64,000 nucleotides of DNA from a virus (IMGVR_UViG_2576861193_000004:32001-96000); one strand, 5' to 3'; positions 33,271 to 45,147 are shown, counted from the stretch's first letter. Notes: generated by a model not told the origin, from the sequence alone. Made by a program: numbers and translations.

Positions 33271-33885
33271 TTGGATTATCATGATATGAAAATGAAACTT
33301 TCGTTACTCCTTGCTTGTATATACCTCCCGGCGTTTCCCGCCAACGCATTATCAGATTTCGTCTCTGACATGCAAAAAACGTACAGCATGTTTACCTCCG
33401 AAGACGTAGTAGAATACAAATCACGAGGTCTGAATCAGCCAGTTTGGTTCAGATTCTCAGACAACGCAGAAGAAACAATACTTAATGGAGGAAAAGAAAG
33501 ATTACGGTTGCAAATTAACGGGACCGCTGTACCAGAAAACGTTAATGTAAGCTCTGACGAAGCCATGAAGCCATCTGGAATTGTTTTAGAAGTTCAAGAC
33601 GGCACACTTTACTGTGATGAAATGGCTACAACAGGTTGCCAAGTAAACATTAGGGTTGGCAATGAAGAGCCTATCGTTACTTACGCCAAGGCTGAAGGGA
33701 ATACAAGTGGAAAGGTATTGTTTATCGATGAAAATATCTCAAAACGTATCGTTCGTGACATACAGAAAACAGCTAACTCTAAATCCGTCGATAAAAAAAT
33801 CTATGTTGAGGTTCCCTTCTTTGTCGTTGGTAACAAAGAATTTAAATTTGGGTTGCTGAAAACACCTCTAAGAGTATCAGAATGA
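33271..33885 (+). CDS. hypothetical exported protein
   Basis: N-terminal signal-peptide-like segment MKMKLSLLLACIYLPAFPANA (AxA site or lipobox-like LLAC). Confidence 0.5.
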   Translation: MDYHDMKMKLSLLLACIYLPAFPANALSDFVSDMQKTYSMFTSEDVVEYKSRGLNQPVWFRFSDNAEETILNGGKERLRLQINGTAVPENVNVSSDEAMKPSGIVLEVQDGTLYCDEMATTGCQVNIRVGNEEPIVTYAKAEGNTSGKVLFIDENISKRIVRDIQKTANSKSVDKKIYVEVPFFVVGNKEFKFGLLKTPLRVSE

Positions 33886-34406
33886 GAACATTGGACATCA
33901 CCTACGGCATACCGGCTGAAGTCTGGCCGCGAGACTACGAACATGCTGAGAACATACTTATGTTCTGGCGGAAGAACAACATTCCTGTAAGAGTCACGCT
34001 TGAAGACGGTCAGGTGTTTTGCATGTACGTTCAGGGGACAATGCCTTCACGCAATAAGCTAGATTTATGCCCGATTCCATATGATAAAGAAAATCGTATA
34101 AGACTCCCACTTGAGCGCATTAGCACAATTGAATCAGGTGTAATCGATGGCATTGCTCGCGAGTTCAAAGGTAGGCTAACAATACATCCAGACTATGTTG
34201 ACAATCAGCCATCACGCCGTGACTTTTTTGCGATATGTCGCAAGGCTTATCAAAACGACCAATCTATAAGGGTCTACATGACAGACGGTCGTGAAATAGA
34301 AGGGGTGTCAAGAGGCGTTGATGCTTGCCAGGTCACTCTTAAGTTAGAAGACGGCAGAAAAATACTTGTTTTCTTCGATTGGGTTGAACGAATCCTTCCA
34401 TTTTAA
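33882..34406 (+). CDS. tandem Rof (YaeO)-like domain protein, candidate Rho antagonist
   Basis: Two repeats resembling the E. coli Rof pattern as recalled (VRVTLEDGQ...RIRLPLERISTIE and VTLKLEDGRKILVFFDWVERI). Overlaps previous gene by ATGA. Confidence 0.4.
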   Translation: MRTLDITYGIPAEVWPRDYEHAENILMFWRKNNIPVRVTLEDGQVFCMYVQGTMPSRNKLDLCPIPYDKENRIRLPLERISTIESGVIDGIAREFKGRLTIHPDYVDNQPSRRDFFAICRKAYQNDQSIRVYMTDGREIEGVSRGVDACQVTLKLEDGRKILVFFDWVERILPF

Positions 34407-36114: not shown

Positions 36115-36240
36115 AATGCAGCCGTTTCCCGAAAAAATCCTGGCCGTTTCCCGTCGGCTCATGAATGCGTTCCTCGCCGTTTCTGAAAATTTCCCTGCGG
36201 CAGCTGGTGGCTATAGAGAAAGGGCCGTTTCTGGCCCTCT
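36115..36240. repeat. iteron cluster 1 (four GCCGTTTCC-type direct repeats)
   Basis: Copies at about 36121, 36143, 36176, 36224 (spacings 22, 33, 48 bp). Contains GCTGGTGG (Chi sequence) at 36203-36210. Confidence 0.7.
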
Positions 36241-36246
36241 TCTCAG

Positions 36247-36729
36247 TTACACGCCATCAAGGATGTGGATGCGGTTGCTTGCGTATACATTCAGCATAAA
36301 GTTAGCGCAAAACAGTTTCCATGTATCAACGCCAGCGGTATACGTAATGTTTTTGCATTTAATTGCATTGTTGGCGATCCGCATCCCCTGCGATACTGCT
36401 TCATCGTCGGAAAATTTGAACGACGATTGAGTTTTAATCCAGACAGAAATCTGCGTAGCGAACTCAATCAGCTTGGACTGGCAGAATCGCCCGGAGCGCA
36501 CCGGAAAGACGAACGTTCCGAATCCAGAATTTACCACATACGCTTTCTCAAATACCCGCGAGTAACGACGATTGCCAATGATGTCGCGTGCAATAATGCA
36601 TTTTTCTTGTGCTGACAGTTCTACCGTCTCATTGTCGCGCCATGCACCAAGTACTCGTTTTTCAATGTCAGAGAACGTTACAGCGATATTGCCATGTGCG
36701 GGTGCGTTTACAGTAGCGATAAAATTCAT
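36247..36729 (-). CDS. hypothetical protein (early-type cassette gene)
   Basis: ORF with the conserved promoter-palindrome cassette upstream. 3' end abuts iteron cluster 1. Confidence 0.5.
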   Translation of the reverse strand: MNFIATVNAPAHGNIAVTFSDIEKRVLGAWRDNETVELSAQEKCIIARDIIGNRRYSRVFEKAYVVNSGFGTFVFPVRSGRFCQSKLIEFATQISVWIKTQSSFKFSDDEAVSQGMRIANNAIKCKNITYTAGVDTWKLFCANFMLNVYASNRIHILDGV

Positions 36730-37079
36730 GATTAATTCCTTATCGTAAATAACAAATTGTTTTCTTGTTGGTGTTAATTATCGTTGTACGAATAAGGCGT
36801 CAAAGTGGAAAGTTGCGGTAGCCGGACGGGAACAGGTGGGTTTGTCGGTTGCCTGGAGGTAAGAGGTTGGTGTTTTTAGCCTGCGGGAAACAGGATGGTC
36901 ATTTAAGGCCACCAATGCTGATGGCCTTAATAATTATCGCCCTATTACGCTAAGGATCTTTTCCTCAACTGATTTGTTGTTGCGACTAAACTGCCTTGCG
37001 TATCTGATGACAGAAGAGGCGTTTTGCTTTCTGACCAATTCGACTCTTTCCTTCAGGGTTTTCTTGAAATCGCCCATAT

Positions 37080-37454
37080 TTACCACCAGGCGCAGAAGGT
37101 CAGTCTGTTATTGTGAAAGTCGTGGTTCCTGATCAGGTCTTCCACAAGTTTTTTCAGCTTATCCACGTCATGCCAGTAACCTTCGTCGTACTCCTGACTG
37201 CCGAAGAAAAAACCTTCCCGAGTAGGCAAGTACTCTTCGCAATTGCTTTCGTTTATGTGCATCAAATGAGCTTTCAGAAGACAAATGTCATTCATCGTTA
37301 ATTCTAAAAGCTCACAATTTTCGACTTCACCTACGTTGCGCTCCATCCACCCAACGAGCGCATTGAACTTACGGAAGTAAGCAACCTGCTTTCTGGATGC
37401 CTCGTTATTCAGATCGTTTTTAGGCTGTGTCTCGATATAGATATCAAGTCCCAT
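37080..37454 (-). CDS. hypothetical acidic protein
   Basis: ATG 37454 with SD AAGGAAA, conserved palindrome cassette upstream at about 37512-37528. Confidence 0.5.
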   Translation of the reverse strand: MGLDIYIETQPKNDLNNEASRKQVAYFRKFNALVGWMERNVGEVENCELLELTMNDICLLKAHLMHINESNCEEYLPTREGFFFGSQEYDEGYWHDVDKLKKLVEDLIRNHDFHNNRLTFCAWW

Positions 37455-37531
37455 GATGGTTTCCTTATTAAGTTGCTTCAGTGAAATCATTTTCACAAAT
37501 CAGATAAGGCAGAAAACAAATTGTTATCGGG

Positions 37532-37560
37532 CATAATAAAATGGCGCGGTTTACGCGCCA
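37532..37560 (-). terminator. rho-independent terminator
   Basis: Hairpin TGGCGCG-GTT-TACGCGCCA with T-run on minus strand, directly after the stop at 37572. Confidence 0.55.
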
Positions 37561-37571
37561 TTTAAAGAGGA

Positions 37572-37968
37572 TTAAGCGAATACGCTTTCAGGGATTAAGG
37601 TGTCGGCAGGAATGCCAGAGGTAATGCGCAGACCGTACTGGCCAATCCAGGTGGTGCTGGTGTTCAGGCTGGAGGCGAATACGGTGTTAACCATATTCAT
37701 CATGGTTTCAAACACCTCTTCATCAACCTGGCGGAAGTAGTTCTCGATTTTCAGCAGCAGCGGGTCAGTTGCATCGAGAATGGACTGGTATTGAGTCGCG
37801 TACTCGCCGCCGGAGGCATCACCTTTACGCACGATCGTACTGGCCTGGACTTCGGCACCAGTTTCGGTGTTGTACGTAACAACGGTAATTTTTGCCACAT
37901 TCTTACCTTCGGCGGTTTCAGAGGCATAGTAAACATCAACTGTCAGTTTTTCGCGTTTAACGGTCATT
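37572..37968 (-). CDS. hypothetical protein
   Basis: ATG about 37968 (MTVKREKL) with SD GGAGAG. Promoter-like TTGTAA-17-TAGAAT containing the GTAAGTATGTACTTAC palindrome upstream. Confidence 0.5.
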
Positions 37969-38030
37969 TCACTCTCCGTAGTGTCTTGGTTATTTTTATA
38001 TTCTATGATCGTAAGTATGTACTTACAATA

Positions 38031-38059
38031 CAAAAAAGCCCCGTAAGGATGGCGGGGCT
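38031..38059 (-). terminator. rho-independent terminator
   Basis: Minus strand AGCCCCGCCATCCTTACGGGGCTTTTTT, about 35 bp after the stop at 38094. Confidence 0.65.
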
Positions 38060-38093
38060 GTCGTACGGTCGACTAATTACCACTTGCACATTA

Positions 38094-38405
38094 TCAGGCT
38101 ATTGCCATCACTGATGCTCTCTGAATCTCTTGCTGGGCCACGCGGTTAACTTCCATCAAAGCCAGTTCGAGCTGATGTTCCGGCCACATTCTTTGAAATG
38201 CCACCCAGCCTTTTCCACGCTGGCGACGAACATTCATTACATAACGAGTAAAGGTGTTTTTATCGAAAGACACCGCTGTTTCACGGAACAGACGAATAGA
38301 GGTTCCATTGGCAACGATGTCCAGCAAAGTTAATTGAGCAACCAGCGCAGGCTTCTCTTTTCTCTTCTGGTCTTTGTCCAGACCAAGAACCAATGATTTT
38401 TTCAT
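38094..38405 (-). CDS. hypothetical basic protein (possible DNA-binding regulator)
   Basis: ATG 38405 (MKKSLVLG) with SD GGAG, conserved palindrome cassette immediately upstream, terminator downstream. Confidence 0.5.
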   Translation of the reverse strand: MKKSLVLGLDKDQKRKEKPALVAQLTLLDIVANGTSIRLFRETAVSFDKNTFTRYVMNVRRQRGKGWVAFQRMWPEHQLELALMEVNRVAQQEIQRASVMAIA

Positions 38406-38558
38406 CACAACTCCGTAAACAACTTGTTTTCTCAATGGCGTAAATAATACCAGTAAGAAAACGGCTACAAAGCATATTGATCAGGTGCATGAGCGATATG
38501 CAGGTTCTTCCCTGCGGCTATAGAGAAATTAAGCCAGCAATGCTGGCTTTGGTTGGGG

Positions 38559-38888
38559 TTACTCGAATACTTCAAGAAACTCCTGAACGTCCCAATGCTG
38601 GACGAGGTGAAGATAGACCTTAGAAATCACGTCATTTTCGCTATCGCATGTGAAGTAGTACTTCTGGCTGCGGTTGTATGTGTCCACACAAAATTCGCTC
38701 ATATCCATAAAGTCAGCATCTTCACCCATGTCGCAAATCATCAAAGCAGGTGCGTCATCACGAGTCATCAGCTCCAGCACCCATCTTGAATTAATCAGAG
38801 TGGAAGACCAACCTTCCAGCTCATAGAACTGGTCAAACTCTTTTTGAGTCAATTTCTTGATTTGGTTGATGTCGATATTTGCAAACAT
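38559..38888 (-). CDS. hypothetical highly acidic protein (candidate DNA mimic / anti-restriction)
   Basis: 109 aa with about 25 Asp/Glu against 8 Lys/Arg. ATG 38888 with SD AAGGA, conserved palindrome cassette upstream. Confidence 0.5.
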   Translation of the reverse strand: MFANIDINQIKKLTQKEFDQFYELEGWSSTLINSRWVLELMTRDDAPALMICDMGEDADFMDMSEFCVDTYNRSQKYYFTCDSENDVISKVYLHLVQHWDVQEFLEVFE

Positions 38889-39244
38889 AAAGCAATCCTT
38901 AAACAACATGTTTTCTTGATGGTGTTATTATCGCAATAACGCACAGGCGAAAAAGGATTTTATTCCGGTGAATGTGGTTTTGGCAGTGAGTTTTCAGGTT
39001 CAGTACCGAGTACACTTTTTACATTATTCTGATTTAGTGGCCGAAGGTGGCTGGTGGGCAGAATAATCATCTCCCCGAAAACCTACTGAAATCGATTGTG
39101 ACCCGCTGACTGTCTGGCACAATTACGCTGTAGTTGGGCATTCAGAGGGAATCCAGCGGTAAGTAAGTTCGCCTGCACGTGAGCGCCTCTCTTCTTCCCG
39201 CACATTACAGGTGGGTAGCCGCAACTCTCCCTATCGCTATACCG

Positions 39245-39385
39245 GTACGCCGCCGTTCCTGAACCGGCATCGAGCCTTTTCCCGAAATCCACACAGGCAA
39301 CTCGACCGTTTCCCTGAAAACCTCCAGCCGTTCCCCGAAGGCAACCCAGCCGTTTCTGTAGCGGGATGCAGCCTTTTCCCTGTAT
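39245..39385. repeat. iteron cluster 2 (six (A)GCCGTTTCCC-type direct repeats, 22-bp periodicity)
   Basis: Copies at about 39252, 39274, 39305, 39327, 39349, 39371; the last four form an uninterrupted 22-bp tandem array. Confidence 0.75.
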
Positions 39386-39419
39386 GGACCTAAGGCTGAC
39401 CGTAGGGGTGTTACGGGGG

Positions 39420-40330
39420 ATAAAATCAGGAGTTGATTAAATACGAAAAAGGAGGCGACACCCCTCCTTCCCTCCCCACTTATACATACCTGTCTTGTTC
39501 GCTATACATGTTGTGTTTTCTTCGTGTTTTATCTGTCTCAACCTCTCTATAGGCGTTAATGCTCACTCCTTCCAGAATGTTCTATACGGCGACTATTTCT
39601 GTTGGTGAATTGGGTGTGTTGTTTTCTCTGTCGGTGTATGTGGTTTCGTTCGTTTTGCGGTGGTTCTTCTATGGGGTGTTCTCGTCGTTTTGGTGATTGT
39701 TCTTCTCCGTGTATGGAGTAATGGCAGGTGGGCGATTCCTTTCGTTATTGTGTTTGAGTTGTTTGTCTGGAGTGTGAAAGGCTTTTGTAGTTATTCGTGT
39801 ATTGGGTAATGGCGTTTCCCGTGATTGTTATGTTTCGTGTCTTTTGGGATTGAGAGAAACCTTGCGGTTACAGGCTTCGTTGGGGTTTCAGTGATTCTGG
39901 TGTTTCTTCGCTGTTTGGGTAATGGCGTGTCGTGGGTATCGCGCGTATGAATGTTTTCGGATTGCCTGTGAAAGTTAGGTTGGTTGTCCGGTAGCCTGGG
40001 GAGAAGAGGTGGGTCTTTTCGGTAGCCTGCCATAAAGAGGTTGGTTGTTTTGGGGAATGGCATGTGTGTTATTTAGTTGTTTTGTTATGCCTGAAAATAA
40101 GTTGTTTATATGGTTGTGTAACGCAACGGGAACGATTTTGAGCGTGTGTTTTTGTTGGTGGTGTGTTGGGTCGTCTGTGGTGAAAATTGGACGCTGTGGC
40201 GCTGTCTGCTGCGTAGAATTACGGGTATAAGAAGTGATGTGTGAATACGTCAATTTTTTAGACCAAATCGGGTGAAAGCGTTGACGTTTCGTTGATCTGT
40301 TATTCAGTTGTTTTCTTATTGGTATAAACA
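39420..40330. other. ORF-poor, strongly G+T-skewed segment with periodic GGGTAATGGCG-like motifs
   Basis: Plus strand is almost only G and T over about 0.9 kb. Repeated motif at about 39712, 39800, 39918, 40052 and tandem CGGTAGCCTG / GGTTGGTTGT pairs. Track ORFs here have implausible composition. Confidence 0.6.
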
Positions 40331-40450
40331 ACGTTAACCTATTGATATTTAAAGGTGTGATTGCAGGTATGGAAGGAGAGTAGTGGCGATCAACAGATTC
40401 TTATAGAAAAGAATCAAATTGTGACCGCCATTATCAATAAGTTGCAACCG

Positions 40451-41020
40451 TTAGTTGTTCAGATAAACATTTGGAACACGGACGTAGAAGTTCCTGTCGC
40501 CGGTAAGTTCCAGAGTAATGTTAATGTCATTACCATTGTCTAGTGTAGCCGTTGCTCTATAGAACTTATCCGTCACCTTGTCCTCTATTGTCACCTTCAT
40601 ACATTTTGGTGCAGTCGAACCGTTATTCTCTTTCAGAATAGTTGTCACGAGAGGGCAGGCTGCTTCTTCAAGAGCAACCTCGTCCTTGTGTGGGATGCCG
40701 ATGAAGATAATCCAAGCCAGCGACGCAACGATTATGATAAATGGCACTCTGCTGCCTTTTGTAATAGTCGCGCGCTTCCAGAGATAGACAGGCAGGAGGA
40801 ATACCCCCCATAGAATTGAAGGTGGTTCACAGCCAGACTCCGATAGAGCCATTCTGTCAGCTACTAACAAACCGATGGTAGTTACACCCCCAATTATAAT
40901 AGCGTAATTGGTATACTCTTCCGGCGATACTCCAAAGAAGAAAGGCATGAACGCTAGAATCCACGCATAAATGTTATTCAGAGGTTTTGTTTGTTGGTTC
41001 TGGGTTTCCATCACATCCAT
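40451..41020 (-). CDS. integral membrane protein (about 4 TM helices)
   Basis: Hydrophobic segments (IYAWILAFMPFFFG, IIIGGVTTIGLLV, ILWGVFLLPVYLW, FIIIVASLAWIIFIGI) plus soluble C-terminal domain. Confidence 0.55.
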   Translation of the reverse strand: MDVMETQNQQTKPLNNIYAWILAFMPFFFGVSPEEYTNYAIIIGGVTTIGLLVADRMALSESGCEPPSILWGVFLLPVYLWKRATITKGSRVPFIIIVASLAWIIFIGIPHKDEVALEEAACPLVTTILKENNGSTAPKCMKVTIEDKVTDKFYRATATLDNGNDINITLELTGDRNFYVRVPNVYLNN

Positions 41021-41172: not shown

Positions 41173-41358
41173 TTAGATGAGATGGTCTAATTCATCATCT
41201 ATCATTGCTTTAACACTTGAGTCATTAACCCCGTATTGATTTATGAGCCGTTTCAGCTCCGGTGAAAACTGAAGGTAGATATCGTGAGCGTTTTTCACTG
41301 TAGGTTCAACGCCACGCATTTCAAGCGCCTTTAGTAGATATGAGTCTTCTTTAAGCAT
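41173..41358 (-). CDS. hypothetical small protein
   Basis: 61-aa ORF between two early-type genes. Confidence 0.3.
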   Translation of the reverse strand: MLKEDSYLLKALEMRGVEPTVKNAHDIYLQFSPELKRLINQYGVNDSSVKAMIDDELDHLI

Positions 41359-41855: not shown

Positions 41856-43889
41856 TTACTTAACCTGGTGGCCTGGTTTAGCACCAGCATCCGGGCTTAA
41901 CAGGAAGATATCTTTCCCGCCGGGGCCAGCAGCCATCACCATGCCTTCGGAGATACCGAAGCGCATTTTACGCGGAGCCAGGTTAGCCACCATAATGGTG
42001 TGACGACCAATCAGTGCCTGTGGGTCTGGATAAGCAGAACGGATGCCTGAGAAGACATTACGCTTTTCACCACCGAGATCCAGTGTCAGACGCAGCAGTT
42101 TGTCAGAACCTTCGACAAACTCCGCGTTTTCAATCAGCGCCACACGCAGGTCAACTTTGGCGAAGTCGTCAAAGGTGATGGTTTCCTGAATCGGGTCGTC
42201 AGCCAGTGGGCCAGTTACCGGTGCAGCTGTGGCTTTCACTTCTTCTTTGGATGCTTCCACCAGTGCTTCCACCTGTTTCATATCGATACGGTTATACAGT
42301 GCCTTGAACGGATTCACTTTATGGCCCAGCAGCGGTTGCTGGATACCATCCCAGGTCAGTTCTGTATTCAGGAATGCTTCTGCACGTTCAGTCAGTTTCG
42401 GCAGTACCGGTTTCAGGTACGTCATCAGCACGCGGAACAGGTTAATGCCCATAGAGCAAATCGCCTGCAGGTCGGCATCGCGGCCTTCCTGCTTCGCCAC
42501 CACCCACGGAGCCTGTTCATCAACATAGCGGTTAGCCAGGTCAGCCAGTGACATGATTTCACGGATAGCTTTGCCAAATTCGCGGCTTTCCCACGCTTCA
42601 CCAATCACTTCAGCGGCATCAGTGAAGGTTTTGTACAGTTGCGGGTCAGCCAGTTCGCTTGCCAGCACGCCGTCAAAACGTTTGTTGATAAAACCTGCAT
42701 TACGGGAGGCCAGGTTAACCACTTTGTTCACGATATCGGCATTCACGCGCTGAACAAAATCTTCCAGGTTGAGATCGATATCATCAATGCGCGAAGAGAG
42801 TTTCGCAGTGTAGTAGTAACGCAGGCTGTCGGCGTCAAAATGATTCAGCCAGGTGCTGGCTTTAATAAAGGTGCCGCGAGACTTGGACATCTTCGCGCCG
42901 TTCACCGTCACATAGCCGTGAACAAACAGGTTGGTCGGCTTGCGGAAGTTGCTGCCTTCCAGCATGGCAGGCCAGAACAGGCTGTGGAAGTAAACGATAT
43001 CTTTACCGATGAAGTGGTACAGCTCGGCGGTGGAGTCTTTCTTCCAGTATTCGTCGAAGCTGGTAGTGTCGCCGCGTTTGTCGCACAGATTCTTGAAGGA
43101 ACCCATGTAGCCAATCGGCGCGTCCAGCCAGACGTAGAAATATTTGCCCGGTGCGTTCGGAATTTCAAAACCGAAGTACGGCGCATCGCGGGAGATATCC
43201 CACTGTTGCAGGCCAGATTCAAACCACTCCTGCATTTTGTTTGCCACCTGCTCCTGCAACGCACCGCTGCGGGTCCATGCCTGCAACATTTCGCTGAAAG
43301 AGGGCAGATCAAAGAAGAAGTGTTCAGAATCACGCATTACCGGCGTAGCGCCAGAAACCACCGATTTCGGCTCGATCAATTCAGTCGGGCTATATGTTGC
43401 GCCGCAGACTTCACAGTTATCGCCGTATTGATCTGGCGCTTTACATTTAGGACAGGTGCCTTTTACAAAACGGTCCGGCAGGAACATGCCTTTTTCCGGG
43501 TCGTACAACTGAGAGATAGTGCGGTTTTTAATAAAACCGTTCTCTTTCAGGCGAGTATAGATAAGCTCAGACAACTGACGGTTCTCTTCGCTGTGCGTCG
43601 AGTGATAGTTGTCATAGCTGATGTTAAAGCCTGCGAAATCAGTCTGGTGTTCCTGACTCATTTCGCCAATCATCTGCTCCGGTGTGATACCAAGCTGCTG
43701 TGCTTTCAGCATGATCGGCGTACCGTGGGCATCGTCGGCACAGATGAAATTAACCTCGTGGCCGCGCATTCGCTGGTAACGAACCCAGACATCAGCCTGG
43801 ATGTGCTCCAGCATATGGCCGAGGTGGATTGAGCCGTTAGCGTACGGCAGCGCGCACGTCACCAGAATTTTCTTCGCGACTTGGGTCAT
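41856..43889 (-). CDS. metG: methionine--tRNA ligase
   Basis: 677-aa product essentially identical by eye to E. coli MetG ([29 protein letters not shown]...KMSKS...). Track ORF begins at an upstream in-frame start; true ATG at 43889. Confidence 0.95.
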
Positions 43890-44046
43890 AGTAGGCATTA
43901 CTTCTTTGTAGTGAAAAGGGGCTTGATAGTAACAAAATGGCCTTATGTCTGCCATGTGATAACAGCATTTCTCATAAATGATTAAATGTCGTAGCTGGAG
44001 TACACTACAAGGCGACAATTGCGCAAATTAAAATAAAGGAGACGGG

Positions 44047-45147
44047 ATGAGCGAGTCCAAATCGCCGGATGCCCTGAGAGCAATGGTAGCCGGTACGCTG
44101 GCTAATTTTCAGCACCCAACCCTGAAACACAACCTGACTACGCTTAAAGCGTTACACCATGTTGCGTTGATGGATGACACACTGCATGTCGAACTAATCA
44201 TGCCTTTCGTGTGGAATAAGCCTTTTGAAGACCTGAAAGAGCAATGTAGTGGTGATCTGCTCCGTATCACTGGCGCAAAGGCTATTGACTGGAAGCTGTC
44301 GTACAACATTGCCACGCTTAAGCGCGTCAAAAACCAACCAGGCATTAATGGCGTTAAGAACATTATCGCCGTCAGCTCAGGCAAGGGCGGCGTGGGTAAA
44401 TCCTCCACGGCGGTAAACCTGGCACTGGCGTTGGCTGCTGAAGGTGCGAAAGTTGGTATTTTGGATGCCGATATCTATGGTCCATCAATTCCAACCATGC
44501 TGGGCGCGGAAAACCAACGTCCAACCTCACCTGACGGTACTCACATGGCACCTATCATGTCTCATGGCCTGGCAACCAACTCTATTGGTTATCTGGTCAC
44601 CGACGACAATGCAATGGTGTGGCGTGGACCGATGGCCAGCAAGGCGCTGATGCAGATGTTGCAGGAAACTCTATGGCCTGATCTGGACTATCTCGTTCTC
44701 GATATGCCGCCGGGCACTGGTGATATTCAGTTGACGCTGGCGCAGAACATTCCTGTAACTGGTGCGGTTGTGGTAACTACGCCGCAAGACATCGCGCTGA
44801 TCGATGCGAAGAAAGGCATTGTGATGTTCGAAAAAGTCGAAGTGCCGGTACTGGGTATCGTCGAAAACATGAGTGTGCATATTTGCAGTAACTGCGGTCA
44901 TCACGAGCCAATTTTTGGCACCGGTGGCGCACAGAAACTGGCCGAGAAATACAACACGCAGTTGTTAGGCCAAATGCCACTTCATATCTCTCTTCGTGAA
45001 GATCTGGATAACGGAACACCAACCGTTATTAGTCGTCCAGATAGCGAATTTACGGCTATTTATCGTGACCTCGCAGATCGCGTTGCTGCCCAAATGTATT
45101 GGCAAGGTGAAGTAATACCTGGCGAAATCGCATTCCGCGCAGTGTGA
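44047..45147 (+). CDS. apbC: iron-sulfur cluster carrier protein ApbC/Mrp
   Basis: P-loop GKGGVGKSSTAVNLA, CxxC motif (CSNCGHHEP), divergent from metG as in E. coli. Confidence 0.95.
   Translation: MSESKSPDALRAMVAGTLANFQHPTLKHNLTTLKALHHVALMDDTLHVELIMPFVWNKPFEDLKEQCSGDLLRITGAKAIDWKLSYNIATLKRVKNQPGINGVKNIIAVSSGKGGVGKSSTAVNLALALAAEGAKVGILDADIYGPSIPTMLGAENQRPTSPDGTHMAPIMSHGLATNSIGYLVTDDNAMVWRGPMASKALMQMLQETLWPDLDYLVLDMPPGTGDIQLTLAQNIPVTGAVVVTTPQDIALIDAKKGIVMFEKVEVPVLGIVENMSVHICSNCGHHEPIFGTGGAQKLAEKYNTQLLGQMPLHISLREDLDNGTPTVISRPDSEFTAIYRDLADRVAAQMYWQGEVIPGEIAFRAV

Follow-up and report, generated by a model that had tools for sequence, protein, structure and literature searches.

What does a phage-plasmid keep in nearly a kilobase of DNA that carries no gene and in which one strand is made up largely of G and T? 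The question is raised by positions 39420-40330 of IMGVR_UViG_2576861193_000004:32001-96000, a 64-kb stretch analyzed here at its full length (the window), which by its sequence matches is an extrachromosomal SSU5/pHCM2-type phage-plasmid of Escherichia coli. A sequence-only reading of the window had described the segment as free of open reading frames (ORFs), extremely skewed and dotted with periodic motifs, and had offered as explanations a long structured or antisense RNA, a replication or packaging element, or a protein-binding array. The strand-skewed, gene-free segment of 0.8 kb is confirmed. It is most likely a conserved non-coding locus, the minus strand of which would be read into an untranslated, unstructured C/A-rich RNA ending at or before 39446; our tentative reading is that it acts in cis as a transcription barrier or regulated gate, combining a Rho-loading zone with an intrinsic terminator. 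The models weighed below are not mutually exclusive, and none is proven.

Composition, coding potential and conservation

Over 39420-40330 the plus strand is 67.8% G+T, rising to 73.3% over 39590-40230 and to a maximum of 74.5% in the 600-bp window that starts at 39600, which lies ~7 standard deviations above the 64-kb mean (49.9%, SD 3.4%). The next most G+T-extreme 600-bp stretch of the 64 kb reaches 59.3%, and in its skew the segment has no equal in the window. GC skew ranges from +0.4 to +0.59 and AT skew from -0.34 to -0.66, at a GC content of 44-48%. The nucleotide-skew check proposed in the sequence-only reading thus singles out this segment as the most extreme stretch of the 64 kb, although its phrase “almost entirely G and T” was too strong, since a quarter of the strand is A or C. 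The left ~170 nt (39420-39590) are not GT-rich and contain a terminator hairpin and a C/T-rich patch; the skewed core (39590-40230), with 73% G+T on the plus strand and 73% A+C in the minus-strand RNA, lacks a conserved ORF and can hardly pair with itself. The skew amounts to 68-74% in all clades, at only 60-72% sequence identity.

The skew does not reflect a gene. PGAP annotates nothing in the segment in RefSeq plasmids, leaving an annotation gap of ~1.5 kb in every relative, and the ORFs that can be drawn mechanically are not conserved, so the description as ORF-free stands. ORFs entered by submitters (two in Cyrano, one in SSU5, one in Cronobacter) are inconsistent in strand and position from record to record. 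In a six-frame comparison, similarity was equally fragmentary in all frames and never above nucleotide identity, and no open frame conserved in relatives with amino-acid conservation beyond that level was found. The eight-clade alignment contains indels of 5, 8, 12, 15 and 20 nt, with a further 31-nt indel within the E. coli clade, and the ATG of a 90-amino-acid ORF is missing in SSU5.

Homologous regions, then, encode no conserved protein, and the segment itself is conserved, in keeping with the earlier view that coding does not explain the asymmetry. Core identity to the SSU5 clade is 73-78% (flanking genes, 59-74%) and within the E. coli clade 96-100%, with many conserved islands set between variable spacers. 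The comparison supports a segment that is non-coding, repetitive and under selection. It is among the best-conserved sequences of SSU5/pHCM2-type phage-plasmids, yet unannotated, and it is undescribed in the searchable literature on SSU5, pHCM2 and phage-plasmids. No natural insertions disrupting it were found, seemingly long spans being secondary matches.

The distribution of the segment is that of the element. Escherichia phage Cyrano matches the segment and its surroundings at 97%, and the SSU5-like phage-plasmids of Salmonella and Klebsiella do so at 70-75%. Among 5426 complete E. coli genomes, 240 carry the segment, always on plasmids of ~110 kb and never on the chromosome; the element is therefore extrachromosomal, and the integrated-prophage context assumed earlier has to be given up. 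PLSDB has 839 plasmids that bear the segment, from Klebsiella, Escherichia, Enterobacter, Salmonella, Citrobacter, Cronobacter, Shigella and others (at least seven enterobacterial genera). The numbers of segment-bearing plasmids equal those of the large terminase in E. coli, Enterobacter, Salmonella, Citrobacter, Cronobacter and Shigella, and essentially every SSU5-type plasmid of those six genera carries the segment. Yersinia pMT1 has kept the terminase and a neighboring gene and lacks the segment; since pMT1 persists as a plasmid, the segment is dispensable for plasmid maintenance and replication.

Orientation and the predicted minus-strand RNA

If the segment is transcribed, the minus strand is probably the one that is read. 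All genes neighboring it lie on the minus strand, and promoter-like elements, a leader module and a terminator point the same way, with nothing comparable on the plus strand, where no promoter or terminator exceeded chance. At 40224-40253, on the minus strand, TTGACG (40253-40248) is separated by an 18-nt spacer from TATACC (40229-40224), with an A-tract upstream; all 15 divergent homologues compared retain the two hexamers and, free of gaps, the 18-nt distance between them, and the center of the spacer varies, a pattern of conservation of the kind expected of a promoter, here putative. A pair of inverted hexamers, CGTCAA and GTTGAC, ~30 bp apart, occupies 40248-40285 in invariant columns; one arm is the -35-like hexamer, and the outer pairs do not covary.

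Further right lies E1 (40298-40339, minus strand, containing ACCAATAAGAAAACAA), a copy of a promoter/leader module with no ORF after it, invariant across clades; a hidden Markov model (HMM) built from eight gene-proximal modules finds it as a ninth at 40339-40306 (E 0.02). A 22-nt repeat of E1, termed E2, is followed at 40067-40108 (minus strand; repeat families D8 and I3) by the palindrome GAAAAYAAnTTGTTT. This dispersed palindrome (GAAAACAAnTTGTTTTC / AAGAAAACAAnTTGTT) has 23 matches in the window against 3.9 expected, at ~13 loci (26753, 26778, 31735, 34360, 36751, 37510, 38418, 38902, 40091, 40302, 41709, 41755, 55283, 56007), and at no fewer than five minus-strand genes a GATAAT-type -10 box immediately precedes it and the start codon follows 15-20 nt further on. 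It has the look of a signal, be it an operator or part of a 5' leader, for a regulon spanning the element, and recalls the C1 operators dispersed over P1.

At the left end, the terminator scan places an intrinsic terminator on the minus strand at 39446-39472 (GGGAAGGAGGGGTGTCGCCTCCTTTTT, then CGTATTT; 10 pairs, 4 of them GC), where any RNA crossing the segment leftwards is predicted to end; its homologue is called in Klebsiella, not in SSU5. A 17-nt homopyrimidine near-mirror tract on the plus strand (CCCCTCCTTCCCTCCCC, 39458-39476), a G-rich patch on the minus strand, forms the region of the 5' arm of this terminator; it is kept in all clades and has H-DNA or G-quadruplex potential.

The RNA that such transcription would yield is 41% A, 33% C, 13.5% U and 12% G (~74% A+C). 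Rho-dependent termination is predicted by an excess of C over G, little structure and an abundance of CA, ACA, AAC and CAC, and as the criterion for a Rho utilization (rut) site we required C>G skew to continue without a break for at least ~78 nt of transcript (PMC6144790). On the minus strand this skew runs for ~700 nt: in 34 consecutive 80-nt windows, beginning ~20 nt in, the C/G ratio is at least 1.9 (at least 2 in 33 of them), the 95th percentile of the window being 1.67. ATG, GTG and TTG number 11 where 47 would be expected, Shine-Dalgarno sequences are almost absent, and the minimum free energy (MFE) over 865 nt is -133 kcal/mol, against -224 for the opposite strand. Weak folding, few start codons and the missing conserved ORF together describe a transcript that would be single-stranded and free of ribosomes. 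By the published descriptors, the minus-strand RNA is predicted to be an extreme Rho substrate.

The two letters A and C form one of the few two-letter alphabets unable to base-pair, and a keto/amino skew is therefore the expected product of selection for a permanently single-stranded RNA. Tests for structure gave a matching result on both strands. Fold z-scores against dinucleotide shuffles were ordinary (-1.39 minus, +1.23 plus). For 15 divergent homologues RNAalifold gave a consensus fold of -16 kcal/mol across 346 columns, in which one of 27 pairs was compensatory and the covariation term came to +0.19; in the other blocks covariation terms ran from -4.7 to +0.6, and consensus energies per column were ~-0.04 kcal (minus strand) and -0.10 to -0.16 kcal (plus strand). 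Rfam had no match at gathering score in the whole window and none at E≤10 over 38900-40500. The long structured RNA of the sequence-only reading thus falls away, the covariation check suggested for it having given practically zero support on either strand; an antisense RNA does as well, since no gene overlaps the segment.

Taken together, these features suggest how a barrier might work. In every clade the right-edge neighbor is a leftward cargo gene ending 5-30 nt from a junction block at 40384-40445, and the cargo genes beyond it differ from clade to clade. RNA polymerase would enter the segment leftwards from these variable genes abutting its right edge, or from the promoter-like elements of the segment itself (E1, 40339-40306; TTGACG-18-TATACC, 40253-40224). 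The resulting RNA, with near-zero start codons, Shine-Dalgarno sequences and pairing capacity, would be a substrate for Rho, and the terminator at 39472-39446 would back up the barrier. A conserved block of small genes with operator-bearing promoters (36247-38909) would in this way be shielded from read-through out of the cargo slot, and the conserved repeated elements of the segment, namely the GCCAUUAC units, a 31-nt array and GAAAACAA-type elements, might be the sites at which phage or host factors tune passage.

Several observations weigh against the barrier. YC dimers at 9-13 nt spacing (8-19 triple motifs) are not above dinucleotide shuffles (z -0.6 to +1.2). Loading of Rho needs composition only, which leaves unexplained both the conservation of islands above the level of genes and the internal promoter-like element. 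That element, moreover, has in TATACC a -10 hexamer without the near-universal final T, which is why the sigma-70 scan misses it; for this segment and its SSU5 and Klebsiella homologues that scan calls no promoter. The terminator is degenerate in the SSU5 clade, leftward transcription is itself something we infer, and the other copy of the 31-nt array lies upstream of a promoter, which suggests a role at the level of DNA rather than RNA.

Repeat families and rival explanations

The recurring motif reported earlier, GGRKAATGGCR, has three exact copies (39804, 39917, 40052), all within the segment, against 0.19 expected, and none of 100 shuffles reached three; with a fourth, variant copy (GGAGTAATGGCA, 39714-39725) the spacings are 88, 113 and 136 bp. 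These copies belong to longer GTAATGGC units, identified by repeat scan and motif count: unit 1 at 39697-39725 (TTGTTCTTCTCCGTGTATGGAGTAATGGC; GCCATTACTCCATACACGGAGAAGAACAA on the minus strand; family D2, its 7-mers GCCATTA and CCATTAC enriched in all clades), unit 2 at 39785-39813, unit 3 at 39898-39926 and unit 4, a variant (GGGGAATGGCA), at 40046-40062. The window has four such units and SSU5-type relatives have six. Two 31-nt direct-repeat copies, 36 bp apart (GTGGTTTCGTTCGTTTTGCGGTGGTTCTTCT / GTGTTCTCGTCGTTTTGGTGATTGTTCTTCT; family D1), lie at 39640-39706. The short tandem pairs noticed earlier also exist (CGGTAGCCTG at 39989 and 40020, GGTTGGTTGT at 39978 and 40039), and both turn out to be parts of one 31-nt unit (CGGTAGCCTG-N-GAGGTKGGT-NTTT) repeated three times in tandem at 39958-40050. 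The copy number of this array, array B, is polymorphic in the E. coli clade, one 31-nt unit having been gained or lost (33 indel columns). On the minus strand, GCCATTA(C), CAGGCTACCG, CACCTCTT and CGGAGAAGAAC are enriched 20- to 150-fold over Markov expectation in all clades, and all repeats of the segment are direct and co-oriented. A view of the GCCATTAC units as a decayed gene-proximal promoter module was rejected: the module HMM finds E1 and misses the units, and the array-A profile aligns with the array only, not with the sequence downstream of it.

Array B has a single relative in the whole element, array A (36816-36900; three 31-nt units in the same orientation), located between about -40 and -130 relative to the conserved promoter of a conserved gene (36247-36729, phrog_1641) and nearly invariant in E. 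coli, Salmonella, Cronobacter, Kluyvera, Buttiauxella and Yersinia pMT1. Run with nhmmer, the array-A profile recovers array B from all clades, with an E value of 1.9e-8 for the window and best matches of 3e-6 to 6e-5 for the others. The two loci share more than their arrays. Direct-repeat clusters of (G)CCGTTTC(C/T) (CCGTTTCC), called iterons in the sequence-only reading and unrelated to the RepA iterons, stand at 36122-36235 and 39253-39365 as paralogues, each just downstream of a hairpin or terminator; we take their core to resemble the CGTTTCC of the lambda cosB R sites. The first locus consists, in this order, of CCGTTTCC repeats, a hairpin, gene 36247-36729, a promoter and array A; in the second, CCGTTTCC repeats are followed by a terminator, the skewed core and array B. 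By this parallel, the skewed core sits in the position of a transcribed unit.

A nucleoprotein array acting at the level of DNA is possible, if rather doubtful. It might be an enhancer or silencer contacting array A through a loop over the small-gene block, a lytic-cycle origin or some other cis site, with the skew a by-product of G/T-rich repeat units. The protein-binding array proposed at the outset survives in this form because one repeat family has its paralogue in an array that stands upstream of a promoter and that pMT1 retains, although the binding itself is deduced from the repeats. The 31-bp unit makes three helical turns and is polymorphic in copy number, the repeats are direct and co-oriented, islands are conserved between variable spacers, the palindrome GAAAACAAnTTGTTTTC resembles a dimer operator, and the maintenance of pMT1 without the segment removes any need for it in plasmid replication. 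What such an array leaves unexplained is the composition: skew is just as strong in the spacers as in the repeats that they separate and so does not simply stem from the units, and protein-binding arrays have no known need for keto/amino asymmetry. Helical-phase periodicity is not distinctive either (~11.4 bp; marginal in relatives and absent from the segment of the window, with stronger signals at other places in the 64 kb).

An origin among such cis sites lacks its usual parts. A RepB-family repA lies ~32 kb from the segment, flanked by iterons (TATGCTGTCAGCGGT) unrelated to the repeats here, and the segment has no DnaA boxes, AT-rich unwinding element or Rep iterons, so a plasmid origin or incompatibility array was rejected and the replication element of the sequence-only reading with it. 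The packaging element fares no better, with the terminase genes ~13 kb away and nothing linking the segment to packaging.

Alternatively, the minus-strand RNA could act in trans, as an unstructured C/A-rich molecule of ~0.5-0.8 kb running from its own promoter to its own terminator and titrating or scaffolding a protein or small RNAs; we consider this unlikely. Its working parts would be GCCAUUAC (four to six copies), CAGGCUACCG/CACCUCUU (three) and the GAAAACAA-type elements, on the logic of CsrB and RsmZ without the hairpins. The conserved repeats are better explained in this way, the motifs being enriched 20- to 150-fold in all clades with a unit number that varies by clade (four or six), as in sponge RNAs; a non-pairing {A,C} composition would be expected if accessibility were selected; and a promoter-like element and a terminator mark the two ends. 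The element also encodes a post-transcriptional repressor, a full-length FljA-family protein at 33882-34406 on the plus strand (Pfam Flag1_repress, E 9e-81), the C-terminal part of which gives an Hfq-like signal below threshold. FljA blocks translation of fliC mRNA (PMC2652032). In its strongest form, which we hold to be just as improbable, a long, structure-free, linear display RNA written in nearly two letters (A and C) would titrate or organize Rho, the FljA-like repressor or G/U-rich small RNAs, and would help to set the lysogeny/lysis or host-takeover state of a widespread clinical plasmid family.

The search for partners of such an RNA identified none. Hfq ARN repeats and MazF ACA sites are not above composition expectation in the segment, the E. 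coli fliC leader has no clear copy of the motif of the element, and Rho itself should truncate an untranslated C-rich RNA. The palindrome motif as an operator for FljA was rejected, the E. coli fliC leader resembling it only weakly. An AgvB/SroC-like sponge for GcvB was rejected as well: the best duplexes with the GcvB R1 seed are at -25 to -31 kcal/mol no better than dinucleotide shuffles matched in composition (z -0.3 to +1.4), and the sites are not conserved between clades. Sponges of the CsrB/RsmZ type present many GGA motifs in hairpin loops, and the ToxI-like RNA antitoxins of type III toxin-antitoxin systems combine tandem ~36-nt repeats with a terminator and, on the same strand, a toxin gene. 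Neither type fits: the repeats here are GCCAUUAC, CAGGCUACCG and CACCUCUU, with no GGA-type CsrA motif, 12% G and no conserved hairpins, and the threefold 31-nt array has no ORF downstream of it on either strand.

A G/U-rich RNA from the plus strand, be it a giant GcvB-like regulator, an R-loop primer transcript or an RfaH/ops-dependent transcript, is very improbable. R-loops are indeed favored where non-template DNA is rich in G, and RNase HI is among the products of the element; CGGTAGCCTG fits the ops core CGGTAGnnTG, and SD-like (Shine-Dalgarno) GAGGTG and GGAGTAATG motifs are found on the plus strand. Against this, the plus strand has neither a promoter nor a terminator beyond chance and no conserved structure, and all flanking genes lie on the opposite strand, to which such a transcript would be antisense. 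RfaH ops/JUMPStart was rejected on the further grounds that the 12-nt GGCGGTAGnnTG, which such elements carry on the non-template strand of a long operon leader, is absent and that the 10-nt core is not significantly frequent (3 against 1.1 expected, a count reached by 8 of 100 shuffles).

Finally, a protein-coding role (low-complexity minus-strand products of 118 and 90 amino acids, rich in T, P, Q, N, H and K, or small hydrophobic Cys-rich peptides from the plus strand) or a functionless, decaying pseudogene region is barely credible despite the ORFs annotated in Cyrano, SSU5 and Cronobacter, given their disagreement in strand and position, six equally fragmentary frames, indels of 31, 20, 8 and 5 nt, the ATG absent from SSU5 and, arguing against neutral decay, conservation equal to that of neighboring genes.

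Genomic setting and known systems

The junction block at the right edge (GGCGATCAAC, a hairpin, then GTGACCGCCA) is the right limit of conservation, with two variable columns in 50 bp in the E. coli clade. Homology between clades stops abruptly to the right of it, and unrelated cargo genes start there, making 40384-40445 a candidate recombination or insertion hotspot or cassette boundary. Its hairpin relies in SSU5 on G-U pairs that are possible on the minus strand only. In the window, the cargo slot contains at 41856-45147 what is apparently a captured chromosomal fragment, with a metG (methionyl-tRNA synthetase, minus strand) close to the chromosomal one and a divergent apbC/mrp gene; in other clades the slot holds quite different genes, for example a GIY-YIG nuclease, a DUF4145 protein or ydfZ.

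Traces of exchange are also found outside the phage-plasmids. Large Klebsiella plasmids (140-270 kb, not phage-plasmid-sized) hold the right two-thirds of the segment; in K. michiganensis pJNQH491-1 it is cut at the left by the putative, unannotated end of an IS3-family element, and it adjoins DUF262 and type I restriction-modification genes. This partial segment looks like a recombination relic. A contig deposited as “MAG: Bacillota bacterium” (JAEWTL010000044.1) encodes the 36247-36729 protein at 99% identity, carries the skewed segment as well and is almost certainly a mis-binned contig of an enterobacterial phage-plasmid.

Chi sites (GCTGGTGG) number 14 in the window, seven per strand, against 1.4 expected, a density that is host-like and unusual for a phage; two of them (36203, 39050) adjoin the CCGTTTCC clusters. 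A 61-amino-acid ORF at 41173-41358 on the minus strand has a sub-threshold match to the T7 gp5.9 RecBCD inhibitor (E 0.005; 17 bits, the cut-off being 24.5), a weak likeness that might be of interest only jointly with the enrichment of Chi.

SSU5/pHCM2-type phage-plasmids are present in ~4% of complete E. coli genomes (240/5426) and in isolates of Klebsiella, Enterobacter and Salmonella that number in the hundreds; their cargo includes resistance genes, and the segment sits at the boundary where cargo is exchanged. If a barrier or regulatory RNA separates the expression of cargo from the phage program, this would explain how these elements tolerate arbitrary cargo, and it would offer a handle for curing or inducing them. 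If the RNA acts in trans and is unstructured, it would count as unusual among the regulatory RNAs of bacteria.

Among known systems, the large non-coding RNAs GOLLD, ROOL, OLE and HEARO share with the segment a size class of 0.5-0.9 kb, a location in phages or mobile elements and conservation, but they are defined by covarying structure, which the segment lacks on either strand. Phage anti-small-RNAs of the AgvB type, which mimic the C/A-rich targets of GcvB, are likewise C/A-rich RNAs from temperate mobile elements of Enterobacteriaceae; the segment is ten times longer, and its complementarity to the GcvB seed is no better than that of shuffles. With the P1 incA/incC iterons and the dispersed P1 C1 operators it shares direct repeats in ORF-free phage-plasmid DNA and a dispersed palindrome, but its repeats are unlike RepA iterons, lie 32 kb from repA at irregular spacings of 88-136 bp and are set in extreme asymmetry. 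The CsrB, CsrC and RsmZ sponges are similar in being non-coding, in carrying many copies of short motifs, in a copy number that varies between relatives and in the bracket of promoter-like element and terminator; the segment departs from them in having non-GGA motifs outside hairpin loops, an essentially linear RNA, no Rfam match and no known cognate protein.

The segment seems to resemble most a rut region or a long Rho-regulated leader, such as lambda tR1 or the leaders of rho, mgtA, corA and rpoS. It differs from these in the length of its C>G skew (~700 nt, against ~80 nt in a typical rut), in being depleted of U as well, and in having strongly conserved islands, repeat families and an internal promoter-like element, and the role of Rho is here a predicted one. 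What it would share with them is an untranslated, unstructured RNA that has much C and little G, a richness in CA, ACA and CAC, and a place downstream of genes whose read-through has to be stopped.

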